Origin: Escherichia phage vB_EcoS_IME542
DNA: 46,553 bases
Sequence record: MK372342
Strand: one strand, 5' to 3'
This document shows, piece by piece, positions 9,009 to 26,199 of this stretch; position 1 is the stretch's first letter; every line of letters begins with the position of its first letter. Under the pieces are notes generated by a model, which was given only the letters and a program-made list of their open reading frames with translations, made no database searches and was not told the DNA's origin. The translations under genes and the position numbers were made by a program.

Positions 9009-9340
9009 GCAAATAATTCTTCGTCATTCATGTTTGCTATTTTCATCATCTCATTCACATAGGCACTAGACTTACCTTCAAAGCTCATAAATTCAAACTG
9101 GAATGGCCTTTTGCTCGAGCCTTTAGACCAGTACACACCATTAACTCCATCAAGATACCCAGCCGTAAGCATTCTCGCCATAAACTCCTTCGAGCAACTC
9201 GATGCAAAATATCTTTCATCAACCCCCGCAGCTTTAGCAATCCTTGCACAATCCTTGTGCTTGTAGATGAATCTTGCGAGGTGTTGGCGGTTGAAGTTTT
9301 TGCATCCTTCGCAGAACCTGTACACGTCGAGAAGAAACAT
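9005..9340 (-). CDS. hypothetical protein
   Basis: 111 aa ORF, last gene of minus-strand early block. Confidence 0.45.
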   Translation of the reverse strand: MFLLDVYRFCEGCKNFNRQHLARFIYKHKDCARIAKAAGVDERYFASSCSKEFMARMLTAGYLDGVNGVYWSKGSSKRPFQFEFMSFEGKSSAYVNEMMKIANMNDEELFA

Positions 9341-9343
9341 AGG

Positions 9344-10927
9344 TTACCCCAGCAGTCTTGGATTGATGTAAATTTTATCACCAATCAGGCACGTATAGTT
9401 TTTTTCGTCCAGCATCGGAATCAAATGGTCCTTAATACGAGTCATGATTCCAGCTTGAGCTTCAAAAGGTTTAACCTTTCGCGCAGCTTCATACAATGAG
9501 CGAACACCAACGACACCCTTACCATTTTTTCCTTGCTTAATCAGAATATCAACCAGCTTATTCATCTCAGCATTATCACCGGCGTGACCAGCGGCACTAG
9601 CGGATGACAAATAAGTCTTGCTTAGTTCGTTAAAAATCATAACCGCCTCCTGCATTGTCTCAAGCTCAATCTCCCTGGACTTCTGGGGGCTCGACCCTGC
9701 TGGTGCGAACCAGTTACGAATAACGTGCAGCACAGAGGCGATACGAATTGCTTGCTTATCAAACTTACCTAGAGCGCCACGTAACATTGTGTGAGAGTAC
9801 TTACCACCATCACCAAGGTGCGGTTCCATTTCCTGACGCGCGCGGTTCAGGTAACACATTGAAGAGGCACTTACAGTTAGTTTCACTTCGACTTCACTCA
9901 TAATCTCATGAACGAGACGGAAGTAATCAGCCTTCAGCCCACCGTCAATAGCCTCATATGTTGAGTCACCATTCTCGTCAACAAACACGCGGTCTCCAAG
10001 GAATGACTTCTCACGCACAAGCAAGAAACGTTCTGACACACCGATACCACGCGCACCAGCATTCATGATCGCGTTGATGGTCTCATCCTGTGCGATAACA
10101 GAGATGCAGCCCATAGCGACAAAGCTCATGTTATTTTCAGCGTTCGCACGCGCAATAGAAACGTTACCAGCATCCCATGCTTTCAGCACAAGCTCGCTGT
10201 TCGTTTTCTTTGAGCCATCACCATAGGTCATGCCAAGTAGTGAGTTTACGCTCGTTGCCTCATCAGAGATTACTGCGAAGTTGCCCTGTCGGTTGTTTAT
10301 TCGCGCAAGACCTTCCGGCGTGGTGTCGGATACGGGGAAAACGATATCGCACAGCTTTTCCAGCTTCTCTTCTAAATCTTCTTTTTCCTCAAAAAGTGAA
10401 GCCATCTCTGACGGAGATTTTTCCTGCTTCATCTCTTTGGATAATGCAGATAGTTTGGCAATAATCTTTTTGCGCTCGCGCTTTCGCACTTCATTAATCC
10501 GCTCAGTCTCAGCAATCATTGGGGCAATTGAAAGCGAGTTAATTGCTGATTTACCAGTTGATGGTGGCTGGCTTGTTACGACGTAGAGCGCGGTTGGCTG
10601 CTGATTTCCGTGATACTCAACAGTAAATCGACCAAGCATGGCGGCAGAAATGCACCCCAGAAAGTGCATATAAGCTGAAGACTCAGGGAATTGAACCGAA
10701 CGAGCAATGTTAGCTGATAACTTGCCCACAACATCAATATCATTACCTAGTGAGATTACAGGGTACTTATCATTTGCAGCATCAATCTCGACCGGAGCCT
10801 TCCAGAATGATTGGGACTGTCGATAACCATTAGCATTAATAGCCACGCGAAGCGGTGGAAGGTTGTCGGTCGCAGCAATTGCCATAACCTGCTCAACAGA
10901 TAGTTTATCTTCGTTGAAATCAAACAT
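9344..10927 (-). CDS. P-loop NTPase, putative replication-associated ATPase (deviant Walker A QPPSTGKS)
   Basis: Walker A-like PPSTGKSA and Walker B-like AVISDEAT; ATG 10927 with GGAG RBS preferred over track GTG 10969; 527 aa. Confidence 0.5.
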   Translation of the reverse strand: MFDFNEDKLSVEQVMAIAATDNLPPLRVAINANGYRQSQSFWKAPVEIDAANDKYPVISLGNDIDVVGKLSANIARSVQFPESSAYMHFLGCISAAMLGRFTVEYHGNQQPTALYVVTSQPPSTGKSAINSLSIAPMIAETERINEVRKRERKKIIAKLSALSKEMKQEKSPSEMASLFEEKEDLEEKLEKLCDIVFPVSDTTPEGLARINNRQGNFAVISDEATSVNSLLGMTYGDGSKKTNSELVLKAWDAGNVSIARANAENNMSFVAMGCISVIAQDETINAIMNAGARGIGVSERFLLVREKSFLGDRVFVDENGDSTYEAIDGGLKADYFRLVHEIMSEVEVKLTVSASSMCYLNRARQEMEPHLGDGGKYSHTMLRGALGKFDKQAIRIASVLHVIRNWFAPAGSSPQKSREIELETMQEAVMIFNELSKTYLSSASAAGHAGDNAEMNKLVDILIKQGKNGKGVVGVRSLYEAARKVKPFEAQAGIMTRIKDHLIPMLDEKNYTCLIGDKIYINPRLLG

Positions 10928-20880: not shown

Positions 20881-22137
20881 ATGGTAAAAACAGACAGCTA
20901 CGCCAATATCTTTCTTGGCGGCAGTGATGGTAGTGAGATTTACGGAAGTTTACAGAATCAAGCGCCTACAATTCTGGCTTCGCTTTATGCGGATAATGCA
21001 ATTGTGCGTCGAATTATTGACACAATCCCAGAGACGGCACTAGCAGCAGGATTCCACATTGACGGTATTGATGACGAACCCGCATTCTGGTCTCGCTGGG
21101 ACGATTTGGAGATGACGCAGAATATTAACGACGCTTGGTCGTGGGCCAGATTATTCGGCGGTTCTGCCATTGTAGCTATCGTTAAGGACAATAGAGCGCT
21201 AACAAGTCCGGTCAGAGAAGGTTCTGAGCTTGAAACTGTTCGCGTTTACGACCGTACGCAGGTAAAAGTACAGACTCGCGAAGAGAATCCGCGCAACGCA
21301 CGTTTCGGTAAGCCGCTAACCTATCGCATCACTACTAACGAGAGTGAAATGTTCTACGACGTACACTACAGCCGCATTCATATCATCGATGGTGAGCGAA
21401 TCCCTAACGTAATGCGTAGGCAGAATGATGGCTGGGGTCGTAGCGTTCTATCCAGTGACATTCTTGACTCAATCAAGGATTACACTAACTGCGAGCGACT
21501 CGCCACGCAATTACTTAGACGTAAACAGCAGGCAGTGTGGAAAGCGAAAGGGCTGGCTGAGTTATGTGATGATAGCGAGGGGTTTGGCGCTGCAAGATTA
21601 CGACTAGCGCAGGTTGACAATAATAGCGGCGTTGGTCAGGCAATTGGTATTGATGCCGAATCTGAAGAGTATAGCGTTCTCAACTCTGATATTGGCGGTA
21701 TTGATGCGTTCCTGGATAAGAAGTTTGACAGAATCGTTGCTCTGAGCGGCATTCATGAAATCATCCTGAAGAACAAGAACGTTGGTGGCTTATCATCCAG
21801 CCAGAATACGGCGCTTGAGACATTCCACAAGTTGATTGACCGTAAGCGCAACGCTGAACTACTGCCAATTCTTGAGTTCTTAATCCCGTTCATCGTAAAC
21901 GCAGAAGAATGGTCAGTTGAGTTTAACCCTCTAGCCCAGGAATCAAGCAAGGACAAGGCAGAAGTTTTGGAGAAGAACGTAAACAGCATCGCAGCACTAA
22001 TTGCATCTGGCGCTATGGATACCAATGAGGCACGTGATACACTACGAGCTATCGCACCAGAGATTAAGATTGGTGATAATGATATTCAGTTCGAGCAATC
22101 GGATTTAATTACAGAGACGGAGGTTGTAATTGCGTAA
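20881..22137 (+). CDS. portal protein (putative)
   Basis: 418 aa gene directly after terminase module; call is positional and by size. Confidence 0.6.
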   Translation: MVKTDSYANIFLGGSDGSEIYGSLQNQAPTILASLYADNAIVRRIIDTIPETALAAGFHIDGIDDEPAFWSRWDDLEMTQNINDAWSWARLFGGSAIVAIVKDNRALTSPVREGSELETVRVYDRTQVKVQTREENPRNARFGKPLTYRITTNESEMFYDVHYSRIHIIDGERIPNVMRRQNDGWGRSVLSSDILDSIKDYTNCERLATQLLRRKQQAVWKAKGLAELCDDSEGFGAARLRLAQVDNNSGVGQAIGIDAESEEYSVLNSDIGGIDAFLDKKFDRIVALSGIHEIILKNKNVGGLSSSQNTALETFHKLIDRKRNAELLPILEFLIPFIVNAEEWSVEFNPLAQESSKDKAEVLEKNVNSIAALIASGAMDTNEARDTLRAIAPEIKIGDNDIQFEQSDLITETEVVIA

Positions 22138-22202
22138 ATTAACTGGTTTCGGAGAGGGGTAATGAATGATGAGTTTGATGGATTTTAGTGAGGATAATTG
22201 GG

Positions 22203-23312
22203 ATGTGTAAAATACGCTATGACAGTGCAAAGGTGAAGGCTCGATTTGATGAAAACGGCTTTCTTGTTGATACCCCGATTGTTGCGCGCGTCGGGGTGCA
22301 AACTTACTACCTTCCAGACGGTACGGAACGCAGAGAATTTAGGCCAGCCTCAGAGGTATTTAAACCTGATTCTCTGGCTAGTTATCAAGGTAAGCCAATT
22401 ACATTGGGTCATGTGTTTGTTAACTCAGAGAATGCTAAAGAGGTTGTTGTAGGTGCTGTATCTGGCGCAGCTATGCGTGAAGACTCGAATGTTATTGTTC
22501 CTTTAACTGTTTACGACAAGGAATCAATTGAGAAGGCTAAATCTGGCGAGGCTGGTGAGTTATCAGTAGGATACTCCACTGTTGATATTGATTCGAAAGG
22601 TTGGGGTAGCAATGAAACTGGTGAGTATAAGCTAGATGGGGAGTACCAATCACAAGGTGAAATCCCTTCTGACTGGGTTAGATTCGATGCTCTGCAAACT
22701 GAAATCAAAGTAAACCACGTCGCACTTGTCTATCATGGTCGCGCGGGGGTAGCCAAACTTAATTTTGACGCTCAACAGGAAAACCCGTATACTGACAGCG
22801 TTGATTCTATTAAAGAGGACGTAAAAGAAATGGTTAAGATTAAACTAGACGGCGCTCAGGAGTTTGAAATTGCTCCCGAAGTCGCCGCTCACATTGAAGC
22901 AGTTAAAGCTGACTCCGCAAAAGAGAAAGCAAAAGCTGACGCGCTGGAAGCTGAGCGTGATGCACTTAAGGCTAAAGTTGATGCAATGCCAGCAGAAATC
23001 GAGAAAGCAGTTGCTAAAGCGAAATCAGACGCAGACGCGCTCGCAACTCTGGTTGCTGTTGCTGCTGAAGCTGGTGTTAAAGCTGATGGTCTGGATGCTA
23101 AAGGCATCAAAGTAGCTTACGTTAAAGAAGTCTCAGGTCTGGATGTTTCTGAGAAGTCTGACGCGTATATCGACGCGGCGTTCGACATTGCCAAGGAATC
23201 TGATAAAATGGCTGAAGTTCGCAAGGCTACCACAGCTTCCGATAAATCTGACGGCAAAGATGATGTGAAGGTTCTTAACCCTCGCGCTCGTCTGGCTAAA
23301 ATTAAAAAATAA
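22203..23312 (+). CDS. head morphogenesis protein: putative prohead protease/scaffold with Ala/Lys/Glu-rich coiled-coil C-terminus
   Basis: C-terminal AKEKAKADALEAERDALKAKVDAMPAEIEKAVAKAK... repeats; position between portal and capsid genes; ATG 22203 with GAGGA RBS. Confidence 0.5.
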   Translation: MCKIRYDSAKVKARFDENGFLVDTPIVARVGVQTYYLPDGTERREFRPASEVFKPDSLASYQGKPITLGHVFVNSENAKEVVVGAVSGAAMREDSNVIVPLTVYDKESIEKAKSGEAGELSVGYSTVDIDSKGWGSNETGEYKLDGEYQSQGEIPSDWVRFDALQTEIKVNHVALVYHGRAGVAKLNFDAQQENPYTDSVDSIKEDVKEMVKIKLDGAQEFEIAPEVAAHIEAVKADSAKEKAKADALEAERDALKAKVDAMPAEIEKAVAKAKSDADALATLVAVAAEAGVKADGLDAKGIKVAYVKEVSGLDVSEKSDAYIDAAFDIAKESDKMAEVRKATTASDKSDGKDDVKVLNPRARLAKIKK

Positions 23313-23322
23313 GGAGTCCTAA

Positions 23323-23793
23323 ATGGCAATTCGTTCTGTAGCTCTGGCAGGTATGGTAGCTGATACTTCCCTGTATAATATCGATGGCGCTTGTGTAGTT
23401 GGTGGCACTGCTCCAATCAATGTCGGTGTGGCTGTTAAAGTTTACCCAGCACCACTAATCGATGGTCACAAAGTTGTGGTCGCTACTGGCATCGCAGCTA
23501 ACCAGGCTGTCGGCGTAGTTGTTAACTCTCATTACGAGACTCCAGACGGCACCGCTAAAGCGAAGGAAGCCGTTAACGTAATGACTGATGGTAGAATTTG
23601 GATGCGCACCACCCTTACAAGAGCGCCAACATTTGGTGCTCCTGTACTGGTAAGCGCTACTGGCGTTGTAGGCGATTCTGGTGCAGCAACTGGCTGGACC
23701 TTCGCTGGCGGCTTCATTCCTAACACTGGCACTAAGCCGCAAGACCTTAGCGTAGATGGCGCTTTGGTTGAGGTTCAGGTTAAACAGAAGTAA
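23323..23793 (+). CDS. putative capsid decoration or other abundant head protein
   Basis: 156 aa; strong RBS TAAGGAG; Gly/Ala/Val-rich; followed by strong terminator. Confidence 0.35.
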   Translation: MAIRSVALAGMVADTSLYNIDGACVVGGTAPINVGVAVKVYPAPLIDGHKVVVATGIAANQAVGVVVNSHYETPDGTAKAKEAVNVMTDGRIWMRTTLTRAPTFGAPVLVSATGVVGDSGAATGWTFAGGFIPNTGTKPQDLSVDGALVEVQVKQK

Positions 23794-23810: not shown

Positions 23811-23837
23811 TAAGCCTCCTTCGGGAGGTTTTTTTAT
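23811..23837 (+). terminator. rho-independent terminator
   Basis: AAGCCTCC-ttcg-GGAGGTT followed by TTTTTTT. Confidence 0.75.
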
Positions 23838-24119
23838 GCTTAAAATCTGTTAACATCAACTCTCTTAAACAATTTCAGGAGTAACAAAATTAGCCTCATT
23901 GAATTAGTAAGGGAAAATATTCGCAATGGCGCAGTTAACATTAAAGGTGTTGAACTATCTAATGAGTTCTCTGTCTTTAAGGAGATTCGACCAGCCACAT
24001 CAATTGCGTCACCGCAAACAATCACTGCAAGGGATGAAACAAAGCTAAGATTTACTAACTACGGGTTTGCGACTGTTGCCAGCTCCTACACAGGAACTGC
24101 GCCAAGTAACGGCATTCAA

Positions 24120-25163
24120 ATGAAAGTCGAGTTTATGACAGATAGTCAACTTTTTGAGATTAAAACTATTGGTTCAATTGCCACATACTCAATCTTTGTT
24201 GATGGAAAGCTCTGCAATGCTGACGCAATCACTACCGCAAACGGAGAGGCTGTTAGCTGGATTCAGGTAAAGGCTAACGATGGAGTAATTCGAAAGGTAA
24301 GGCACGTTGAGATTTATGGCATAAACACAGCGCTTGGTGCAATCCAGGCAAACACGGAAGACACATTCTCTTCGGATATCAGCTCTGAGCGGCCATTAAT
24401 TTATCAGATGGGTGATAGTTACACTTATGGTACTGGTGCTGCATACCCAACTCAGGCTTATGTATCATCCCCAGCAATCAATGACTTTTATGCATATAGT
24501 CGCGCCCTAGGATTTGACGGAATTGCTGAATGGATCGGAGGTAGTGGGTGGAACAGTACTGGCGGTCAGTATCCAGCAACAAGGGTATCAACCAGGCTTG
24601 CTAATATTAACAGAAAACCATCTGCGATTGTTTTCGCTCTTGGTTACAATGACGCTGCCGCAATTAACTCTGGTACAAACAAAGAAAAGCTAGTAACCAG
24701 CATGATTGAAGCGGTATCGGCAGCCAAGGCCGCTCACCCAAATGTTCCAATCGTTGTAGTAAGCCCCGCCACTCCGAAGGGAATTACATCAAACATTCAG
24801 ACTGTTTATGACCTGGTTAAGGGTTTCTGCTCTAAGAATGGTATCGAGCTGCTCGAGGTTAGTAATGCGGTAACTAACGCCAATTCTGTTGTTTACACTG
24901 GCACGGATAACGTTCACCCTAACGGTCTTGGGCACCAACATCGTGGCTTGGAGATTGCAAGGTACGTCAAAAGGGTTGCTTTGTCTGGCGGCAGCCTTGT
25001 TCCGAAATTTACCTCTGGATATATTGTTAACTTTATCGAGAGAAACGGATTTTCTGTTGAAGTTAAATCGGAAACTGTTCAAGCTGAATCTCTTGAGGCT
25101 GCACAAAATATCATCAAGTCACGAGCTGAAGCTAACGGCTCTATAATGATTGAAATCGTTTAA
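24120..25163 (+). CDS. SGNH/GDSL-family hydrolase (esterase) with N-terminal non-catalytic domain
   Basis: Block I YQMGDSYTYG, block III LGYNDA, block V DNVHPN; in-frame stop-free extension upstream to 23844 without ATG/GTG/TTG. Confidence 0.7.
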   Translation: MKVEFMTDSQLFEIKTIGSIATYSIFVDGKLCNADAITTANGEAVSWIQVKANDGVIRKVRHVEIYGINTALGAIQANTEDTFSSDISSERPLIYQMGDSYTYGTGAAYPTQAYVSSPAINDFYAYSRALGFDGIAEWIGGSGWNSTGGQYPATRVSTRLANINRKPSAIVFALGYNDAAAINSGTNKEKLVTSMIEAVSAAKAAHPNVPIVVVSPATPKGITSNIQTVYDLVKGFCSKNGIELLEVSNAVTNANSVVYTGTDNVHPNGLGHQHRGLEIARYVKRVALSGGSLVPKFTSGYIVNFIERNGFSVEVKSETVQAESLEAAQNIIKSRAEANGSIMIEIV

Positions 25164-25254
25164 CTTAAGCGCCTCATGGACGAGGCTATTGCTACACCTG
25201 AAAACTAGTGTATAATTGACTTGTACATACCTAACTGAAAAGGAATAAACAAGA

Positions 25255-26199
25255 ATGGCCATTAAATTTGATGCAGAACAAGCAAAAATCACCGCTCACC
25301 TCGAGCAAATGGGCGTAGATAAAGCAGATGCTGCTGGTATCTGGACTGTTAAACAGCTGACCGCATCACTGAATCGCGCTTACGAACAAGAATACGCAGA
25401 CAACTCAGTTGTTAATATCTTTCCTGTAACCAACGAAATTCCGGGTCACGCGAAATACTTCGAATACCCTGAGTTTGATGGCGTTGGTATTGCTCAGATT
25501 ATCGCTGATTACTCAGATGACCTGCCGCTTGTTGATGCTTTTATGACCGAGAAGCAAGGTAAAGTTTTCCGTTTTGGTAACGCGTTCCTGATTTCCACCG
25601 ACGAAATCAAAGCCGGTGCCGCAACTGGTCAGTCACTGTCAACTCGCAAACAGGCTCTGGCTTTCGAAGCTCACGATAACCTGCTTGATAAGCTGGTATG
25701 GCAGGGCTCTGCCCCGCACGGCATCGTAAGCGTGTTTGACCAGCCGAATATTAACAACGTAGTTGCAACTCCTAACTGGAGCGTCCCACAGAACGCAGTT
25801 AACGACGTTACCGCAATGATTGATGCTGTAGAAACCAGCACCCAGGGCTTCCACCATGTAACTGATATTCTGCTGCCAGCTTCCGCTCGCCGTGTAATGC
25901 AAACGCTGGTTGCTAATACAACCCTGAGCTATGGTGAGTTGTTTACTCGTAACAACCCAGGTGTAACCCTGCGCTTTATGCAGTTCCTGGACAACTACGA
26001 TGGCGCAGGCGGTAAAGCTGCACTGGCGTTTGAAAAGGATCCGCTCAACATGAGCATCGAGATTCCGGAAGCGACGAACGTGCTACCTGGTCAACCTAAG
26101 GATTTGCATTTTAAATATCCTGTAACTTCCAAGGCAACTGGCTTGATTGTATACCGCCCTCTGACAATGGCAGTAATCAAAGGCATCACCTTCGCTTAA
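25255..26199 (+). CDS. major capsid protein (putative)
   Basis: 314 aa; position in head module; GGAATAAAC RBS; strong terminator after; call not motif-based. Confidence 0.65.
   Translation: MAIKFDAEQAKITAHLEQMGVDKADAAGIWTVKQLTASLNRAYEQEYADNSVVNIFPVTNEIPGHAKYFEYPEFDGVGIAQIIADYSDDLPLVDAFMTEKQGKVFRFGNAFLISTDEIKAGAATGQSLSTRKQALAFEAHDNLLDKLVWQGSAPHGIVSVFDQPNINNVVATPNWSVPQNAVNDVTAMIDAVETSTQGFHHVTDILLPASARRVMQTLVANTTLSYGELFTRNNPGVTLRFMQFLDNYDGAGGKAALAFEKDPLNMSIEIPEATNVLPGQPKDLHFKYPVTSKATGLIVYRPLTMAVIKGITFA

Follow-up and report, generated by a model that had tools for sequence, protein, structure and literature searches.

An ATT triplet in place of the ATG start codon of relatives in a head-module SGNH esterase gene of Escherichia phage vB_EcoS_IME542

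The AUU start codon of infC is conserved and serves autoregulation. In Escherichia coli reporter assays, initiation from AUU reaches about 1-2% of that from AUG, and infC and pcnB are the only genes confirmed to be initiated from this codon (bioRxiv 10.1101/063800). We describe here an SGNH/GDSL esterase gene that carries ATT at the position where its homologues carry ATG. The gene lies in the head module of Escherichia phage vB_EcoS_IME542, whose sequence of 46,553 nucleotides (nt; record MK372342) was analysed as a whole and is referred to below as the window. The phage belongs to the Braunvirinae, genus Christensenvirus, and its host is Rosetta(DE3), a BL21-derived strain (PMC10450929).

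Orthologues of the gene occur in other Drexlerviridae, namely Shigella phages Sd1 (HOR98_gp45) and Sf12 (gp58), AugustePiccard of Escherichia (bas01_0009), and Opt-79 of Klebsiella (OPT79_6) with its near-identical relatives. They likewise encode three-domain proteins of 428-430 amino acids (aa), 53-60% identical to that of the window, and lie in the same slot between the capsid cement and major capsid genes, with the same architecture of terminator, extended -10 promoter and Shine-Dalgarno sequence. They differ in that all of them start with ATG, and in that a collagen-like fibre gene, absent from the window, follows them. No experimental characterisation of these orthologues was found in the literature searched. 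Described enzymes available for comparison are members of family 2 of the carbohydrate esterases (CE2), namely CtCE2 of C. thermocellum (2WAO), CjCE2 of Cellvibrio (2WAA, 2W9X) and Est2A of Butyrivibrio (3U37), and gp63.1 of phage G7C (4QNL), a tail fibre protein of 847 residues and SGNH esterase to which deacetylation of O-antigen has been ascribed.

We show herein, from alignments with these and other homologues, that the real gene comprises positions 23889-25163, and that the 77 codons upstream of the publicly annotated start are coding. As judged from the sequences compared, the ATG-to-ATT change persists in a circulating phage lineage and represents a clean natural example of such a change. 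The interpretation we favour, with a probability of about 0.6, is a start-codon knock-down of a dispensable glycan esterase, in which an ancestral ATG became ATT and AUU 23889 would be the sole route to the full protein.

Gene limits and the start position

According to the initial annotation, the frame is open for 92 codons before ATG 24120 and contains no ATG, GTG or TTG. Translation of 23844-25166, together with the listing of open reading frames (ORFs), bears this out; the frame is open back to 23844, following TAA 23841-23843, and none of the three triplets occurs in frame. Of the 37 ORFs in the window that span 150 codons or more from stop to stop, none has a longer start-free lead. Taken alone it is unremarkable, as the chance of finding no ATG, GTG or TTG in 76 codons is ~0.13 at the codon usage of the phage, and the ATG-bearing relatives L008 and L009 likewise contain none between codons 1 and 78. 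The upstream extension is judged to be real because it is homologous to full-length relatives, and not because a start-free stretch is improbable. A start-free lead of 80 codons at 9017-9499 runs antisense to real genes and was dismissed as noise.

In protein and DNA alignments, ATT 23889 matches the ATG start codon, codon for codon, in every full-length homologue, including those of AugustePiccard (429 aa), Opt-79 (428 aa) and Sd1 (430 aa). The first residues of the window protein, (I)SLIELVRENI, correspond to MNFLDLVRKQY or MASFLELVRDNI in these proteins. In L008 and L009, the nearest full-length relatives (86-87% aa identity), the upstream sequence CAGGAGTAACAAAATG is identical to that of the window, and the start region reads ...AACAAAATG; in the window and four other sequences (L004-L007) it reads CAGGAGTAACAAAATT. 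The two start codons are thus separated by one G-to-T change at the third base (ATG to ATT), and no compensating changes are seen around ATT in the start-region alignment. The AGGAG noticed earlier in front of ATT is there as described, with a 7-nt spacer, and this ATT is the codon that aligns with the ATG of full-length relatives. The suggestion that ATT might act as a non-canonical start is correct as to the homologous position; confined as it is to the IME542 lineage, this ATT is best read as a recent lesion rather than as an evolved, conserved non-canonical start.

The sequence between ATT and the internal ATG behaves as protein-coding sequence. Residues 1-77 are 47-82% identical to full-length homologues, with values across homologues running from 82% (L008) to 35% (L016), and the ratio of nonsynonymous to synonymous substitution rates (dN/dS) between the window and L008/L009 is 0.07 for codons 2-77, compared with 0.06-0.07 for codons 78-424. 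Peptides such as GVELSNEFSVFK, EIRPATSIASPQTITAR and FTNYGFATVASSYTGTAPSNGIQMK are contained in residues 2-77. RNA folding near ATT 23889 and ATG 24120 was no stronger than in shuffled controls (z -0.1 to -0.3), and hence offers no structural explanation of the choice of start. The 347-aa ORF appears to be a gene-caller artefact, as callers accept only ATG, GTG and TTG. It is 100% identical to QAU04418.1/YP_009824917.1 of vB_EcoS_IME542, and since ATT is invisible to gene callers as a start, GenBank, RefSeq and UniProt list the protein (YP_009824917.1, WP_167124373.1) with 347 aa, which is 77 residues, and half a domain, too short.

The allele was found in all five sequences of this lineage that were read, that is, the window, one NCBI bacterial assembly and three Logan runs. 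Within stretches of up to 7 kb, the latter four (L004-L007) show 15-19 single-nucleotide polymorphisms (SNPs) relative to the window, L006 having a mosaic capsid gene as well. In a version one residue off the window protein (P0003), the call of 347 aa is indexed in 31 assembly-collection blocks and is found on at least 24 independent contigs. An error of sequencing or assembly, limited to a single record, might be suspected of a triplet that is one base off its closest ATG-bearing relatives, but its probability is practically negligible, given that the same base recurs in five sequences from different sources that differ elsewhere, besides those contigs with the 347-aa call. Among 5.8 billion protein clusters there are relatives of 424-433 aa at 49-87% identity and a 347-aa cluster at 100%, and no 424-aa allele more than 87% identical to the window. 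An upstream ATG would give a 424-aa call, so these clusters appear to hold no near-identical ATG allele. A further candidate for a truncated call, P0016 (354 aa), was rejected, its ORF being cut by the end of the contig.

Searches for the exact pattern of the ATT allele gave no match in IMG/VR, JGI metagenomes or complete E. coli genomes, and in the GTDB genomes the sole match was a contaminant contig of Nitratidesulfovibrio liaohensis. This contig of the XJ01 assembly (VSMK01000220.1, NZ_VSMK01000220.1; L005/L013; 46669 bp) is a near-identical copy of the coliphage genome and evidently represents contamination; WP_167124373.1 is accordingly attributed to a sulfate-reducing bacterium whose assembly holds this coliphage. 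T1 itself has been called a notorious laboratory contaminant (bioRxiv 10.1101/2021.03.08.434280), and outbreaks of T1-like relatives in laboratories and fermentations have been reported (PMC13035648; PMC10450929).

The predicted protein and its cassette

The SGNH blocks GDSYTYG, GYND and DNVHP, from which the initial annotation had recognised an esterase, are present, and the protein matches Lipase_GDSL_2 (PF13472; 1.1e-13, 52.5 bits against a gathering cut-off of 32.9) and Lipase_GDSL (PF00657; 35.1 bits against 23.6). In an alignment of 36 sequences, G175-D176-S177, G217, N254-D255, D340 and H343 are invariant. The assignment also agrees with structure prediction, in which the catalytic domain adopts the alpha/beta/alpha flavodoxin-like fold of SGNH enzymes. 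The AlphaFold2 model has a predicted local distance difference test score (pLDDT) of 91.1 over the whole length and a predicted template modelling score of 0.86; the pLDDT is 93-96 for residues 1-60, and 83 and 77 across residues 61-80. A domain ahead of the SGNH part had been noted correctly, but its size had been put at ~100 residues and becomes ~165 once the extension is counted. In the model, residues 1-77 account for one helix and for some 5-6 of the 12 strands of the N-terminal beta-sandwich, and so a product starting from Met78 would be devoid of half of this sandwich.

In the predicted structure, the first two domains have the architecture of CE2 enzymes. From this resemblance of a beta-sandwich followed by an SGNH domain, the most likely chemistry would be removal of O-acetyl groups from a polysaccharide. 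Sequence searches against solved structures reach distant acetyl-esterases only, and the matches among viral structures are for the most part SGNH-containing tail-fibre or minor-tail proteins. The coordinates of domains, signals and neighbouring genes are collected in Table 1.

Table 1. Features of the esterase gene and its surroundings, in positions of the window
Feature	Position	Strand	Basis and remarks
Esterase gene, full length	23889..25163	+	424 codons plus stop; homologues 424-433 aa; AlphaFold2 model over whole length
SGNH/GDSL ORF as called from ATG	24120..25163	+	347 aa; ORF listing
Shine-Dalgarno AGGAG	23877..23881	+	7-nt spacer to ATT; identical CAGGAGTAACAAA in ATG-bearing L008/L009
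ATT, positional homologue of ATG start codon	23889..23891	+	protein and DNA alignments
Internal ATG (Met78), start in public annotation	24120..24122	+	invariant internal Met in homologues; no Shine-Dalgarno in front
N-terminal helix and beta-sandwich, residues 1-165	23889..24383	+	residues 1-77 are the part missing from public annotation
SGNH catalytic domain, residues 166-372	24384..25004	+	Ser177 24417-24419, Gly217, Asn254, Asp340, His343 24915-24917
C-terminal beta-beta-alpha-beta domain, residues 373-424	25005..25160	+	AlphaFold2 model; candidate virion-attachment module
Portal gene	20881-22137		PF06381
DUF2213 protease/scaffold gene	22188-23312
Capsid cement/decoration gene	23323..23793	+	156 aa; Pfam PF22758 Phage_cement 6e-24; context, outside the cassette
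Intrinsic terminator, end of cement transcript	23812..23836	+	AAGCCTCC-TTCG-GGAGGTTT, then T-run; terminator scan
Putative extended -10 promoter TGtTAACAT of esterase gene	23848..23856	+	TG 23848-23849, hexamer 23851-23856
Hairpin GCCTC-ATGGAC-GAGGC	25171..25186	+	no T-run; just upstream of capsid-gene promoter
Sigma-70-type promoter TTGCTA-16-TATAAT, major capsid gene	25189..25216	+	promoter scan, 10/12 matches; downstream boundary of slot
Major capsid protein gene	25255..26199	+	Pfam PF09950 6e-35; context only

The head module is that of a T1-like siphophage and has the order portal, DUF2213 protease/scaffold, capsid cement, esterase and major capsid protein. The placement reported earlier, between the head gene at 23323 (capsid cement, PF22758) and the major capsid gene (PF09950), was borne out; the remark that this is an unusual place for a catalytic enzyme was not, for the slot is a recurrent site of accessory genes in this esterase family. 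All DNA relatives of the window are Drexlerviridae of E. coli, Shigella and Klebsiella, whose head genes are 80-84% identical to its own. The strong terminator behind the cement gene is conserved in all relatives, including the cassette-less ACG-M12, and twelve bases separate it from TGtTAACAT. The TGnTAnnAT positions of this motif are invariant in an alignment of nine sequences with varying flanks, and L016, whose esterase is a 37%-identical homologue, has TGgTAATAT at the same place. A consensus promoter scan found no -35 element in front of it, and we infer from the conserved pattern that it is an extended -10 promoter.

Downstream of the esterase gene, the relatives have another terminator and another extended -10 motif, and then a gene for a collagen-repeat protein. 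The window is devoid of this fibre unit, and the stop codon of the esterase joins directly to the conserved hairpin and the capsid-gene promoter, the latter being conserved whether or not a relative has the cassette. In L008/L009 the hairpin reads GCCGC-ATGGAC-GCGGC, two compensatory substitutions having left the stem paired; such a change points to an RNA or DNA structure with a function, possibly in processing, stability or weak termination.

All four states of occupancy of the slot were found. It is empty in ACG-M12 and in TR1, a close relative of IME542 from BL21(DE3) fermentations in which the cement and capsid genes are adjacent; it holds the esterase alone in the window phage, the fibre alone in AN_ECEAS, and both in AugustePiccard, Sd1, Opt-79, L008, L009, L012 and L016. 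Because of these four states, the esterase gene appears to be an accessory module, independent both in its transcription and in its loss. Within the phage collection, about 7% of the related Drexlerviridae records contain it.

The collagen-triple-helix partner gene lies at 4357-5817 in L008, 4516-5949 in L001 and 923-2383 in L048, and its product has a weak, sub-threshold match to the carbohydrate-binding module CBM_5_12. Such genes are labelled 'tail fiber' or 'collagen repeat protein', and in Opt-79, where the gene is split into several coding sequences, even 'DNA polymerase'.

Two further observations concern the neighbouring head genes. Between the window and L004-L007 the cement gene has 11 SNPs in 471 bp, 10 of them nonsynonymous, in genomes only ~0.25% divergent. 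The changes (G28D, N33D, Y41D/S, A43E, P74Q, R100K, D118N, S119A, A121V) are far denser than in the flanking genes, a pattern suggestive of an exposed capsid surface under diversifying selection or adapting to the laboratory. In L006 and L007, codon 412 of the portal gene (22114 in the window) is changed from GAG to TAG, which ends the portal protein 7 residues early.

Expression of the ATT allele and location of the enzyme

We propose that the ancestral ATG start was changed to ATT in the lineage that comprises vB_EcoS_IME542 and the near-identical contaminants of sequencing data sets. The folded full-length protein would then be reachable only through initiation at AUU 23889. Since AUU works at ~1-2% of AUG and the Shine-Dalgarno sequence and spacer are unchanged, the output of esterase would be reduced roughly 50- to 100-fold relative to ATG-bearing relatives. 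E. coli B and K-12 have no O-antigen. The allele would be tolerated, possibly under relaxed selection, as the host used for isolation, and presumably for propagation, is a laboratory E. coli without O-antigen; for K-12 this lack is on record (PMC13035648). The allele may also be used to measure AUU initiation during infection.

Several points weigh against a knock-down of a dispensable gene. Both initiation at AUU 23889 and its level are predicted. The gene is otherwise undecayed, all family-invariant residues being kept and no frameshifts or stops having arisen, so either the lesion is recent or residual expression still matters; an intact gene fits a very recent lesion and continued function equally well. 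Moreover, the divergence within the ATT clade (~0.25%) is too small for a test of relaxed selection, and the two SNPs in the esterase gene within this clade are both nonsynonymous, as are most SNPs in the neighbouring head genes. A promoter and terminator of its own would also suit a non-structural gene of the 'moron' type, that is, an independently transcribed add-on.

Alternatively, AUU could be a selected attenuator as in infC, possibly responsive to IF3, that keeps the copy number of the esterase low. The persistence of the allele across several haplotypes and many samples would fit this, as would the retention of a strong Shine-Dalgarno sequence with optimal spacing and of an intact remainder of the gene with every invariant residue, and no ATG revertant was seen in the databases searched. 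Against it, AUU is limited to one shallow lineage with unaltered start surroundings, the same position is taken by ATG in every other homologue examined (L001-L003, L008, L009, L016), and the full-length database clusters, of 424-433 aa, all begin with a canonical start codon; besides, the lineage was isolated on a laboratory strain on which a glycan esterase should be dispensable, and many relatives have an empty slot. We consider an attenuator rather improbable, and a tolerated knock-down is preferred to an evolved regulatory AUU because the host is BL21-derived, the fibre gene has been lost and TR1 has no cassette. It is somewhat easier to suppose, though still unlikely, that ATT abolishes expression and leaves a gene that is in effect silent, a pseudogene of very recent origin heading for deletion, as has already befallen the fibre gene. 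The 1-2% yield of near-cognate starts in reporters, the missing partner gene, the loss of the whole cassette in the close relative TR1 and a host without the presumed substrate all agree with that view, whereas 1-2% of a strongly initiated message is more than zero and the ORF has no second lesion; from the knock-down it is in any case distinguished only by degree. Finally, the annotated 347-residue protein from ATG 24120 could itself be the real product, a truncated but active esterase. No canonical start precedes that ATG in the open frame, a protein begun there would keep its SGNH and C-terminal domains whole, and that ATG is the start given in public annotation. It is, on the other hand, preceded by no Shine-Dalgarno sequence and encodes Met78, an invariant internal residue in all homologues; a start there would cost the protein its N-terminal helix and about half the beta-sandwich strands, and the 77 codons before it are conserved as protein, with the low dN/dS given above. 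We regard this as very improbable.

The initial annotation had suggested a virion-associated deacetylase or esterase, which gene position, fold and relatives make plausible. Whatever its level of expression, the esterase may be attached to the virion, possibly through the 52-residue C-terminal domain. Even in L016, at 37% identity, the gene lies between those for the cement and capsid proteins. In an unrelated phage, a 357-aa homologue (L032 2872-3942; IMGVR_UViG_3300035670_000254) directly follows a Gp13-like major capsid protein (PF20036), an independent placement in a head module. A homologous module is fused to a tail-fibre N-terminal domain (PF08400) in P0021, and in L034 another forms part of a 1360-aa ORF that has collagen-like and tail-type ORFs as neighbours. 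The C-terminal domain is absent from T4-like homologues, whose matches stop at residue 353-363. Its identity to the window and that of the cement protein are, respectively, 79% and 79% in L008, 42% and 67% in AugustePiccard, 17% and 53% in Opt-79, 21% and 54% in Sd1, and 15% and 53% in L016. Residues 78-165 rank differently from the cement protein (Opt-79, 76%; AugustePiccard, 58%), and the SGNH domain is at 64% in both of these phages. The C-terminal domain thus seems to track the cement protein and not the esterase domains, which with n=5 is suggestive only. BLASTP found no terminal attachment motif shared among the esterase, the collagen-like fibre and a 678-aa candidate lateral tail fibre. 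PhiPsa374 gp053, an SGNH protein detected in virions, is not among the tblastn matches and is not claimed as a homologue.

The enzyme may instead be soluble, released at lysis, for example to deacetylate glycans on debris or neighbouring cells, its location reflecting no more than an insertion hotspot. Such a view would accommodate a promoter and terminator of its own, and the literature searched holds no proteomic or structural report on a Drexlerviridae esterase, which speaks against a virion protein. Further, the 'head decoration' label carried by such proteins stems from phrog_9703, which matches the esterase part only, and no Hoc or immunoglobulin (Ig) domain was detected by Pfam. It is less easily reconciled with the conserved position between cement and capsid genes, with a similar position beside an unrelated capsid family in L032, with the fused modules in P0021 and L034, with a viral fold search dominated by tail-fibre and minor-tail proteins, or with the additional domain at the C-terminus, whose divergence parallels that of the cement protein. 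A soluble enzyme is a fair possibility, though less likely than not. Only as a tentative and rather doubtful proposal, the Drexlerviridae esterases could be catalytic capsid decorations, i.e. CE2-type O-acetyl-esterases anchored to the head by the C-terminal domain beside a collagen-like, carbohydrate-binding head fibre. They would then be the enzymatic counterpart of the purely adhesive decorations of the Hoc type, and the AUU start of IME542 would leave few copies per capsid.

Comparison with known systems

Like the CE2 enzymes, the window protein has an N-terminal beta-sandwich fused to a C-terminal SGNH domain, at a sequence identity of 14-19%; the profile match to 2WAO (E=8e-5 over ~70 positions; 2WAO/2WAB E about 1e-4) is partial and weak. 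It is unlike them in its additional N-terminal helix and in the 52-residue domain at its C-terminus. From gp63.1 of G7C it differs in having no recognisable tail-attachment domain and in being encoded in the head module, and BLASTP found no similarity to the window's own 678-aa candidate lateral tail fibre. In these respects it does not resemble the tail-fibre deacetylases of the G7C type.

The proteins named 'Hoc' or head decoration in T4-like Karamvirus phages (PG7 CG98_gp006, CC31; PHROG 9703) are 34-36% identical to the window protein over residues 26-361. The match to phrog_9703 (E=6e-117) covers profile positions 169-499 of 502, that is, the esterase part only. The Karamvirus proteins are 511 aa long, have a different N-terminal region of 170 residues and are without the C-terminal domain. 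The 'hoc' gene of PG7 (L010 2437-3972) adjoins a topoisomerase gene, away from the head genes, and the C-terminal two-thirds of its product, the esterase, are its sole recognisable part. Pfam gave no match to a Hoc-type Ig-like domain or known capsid-binding domain in either the window protein or PG7 'hoc'. The public 'head decoration' label is annotation transfer and not evidence, and as spread through PHROG 9703 it may be unfounded.

As in infC and pcnB, AUU stands in the start position behind a Shine-Dalgarno sequence and would have a low intrinsic efficiency of initiation. Unlike that of infC, the AUU of the window is confined to one shallow lineage and is replaced by AUG in all relatives, and thus is not a conserved start. 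The gene draws attention to an uncharacterised two-gene cassette of T1-like phages, in which an esterase gene and a collagen-like fibre gene are paired within the head module. A phage SGNH glycan esterase is a known kind of enzyme; what is unusual here is the start codon, and the result is an annotation correction rather than a new system.

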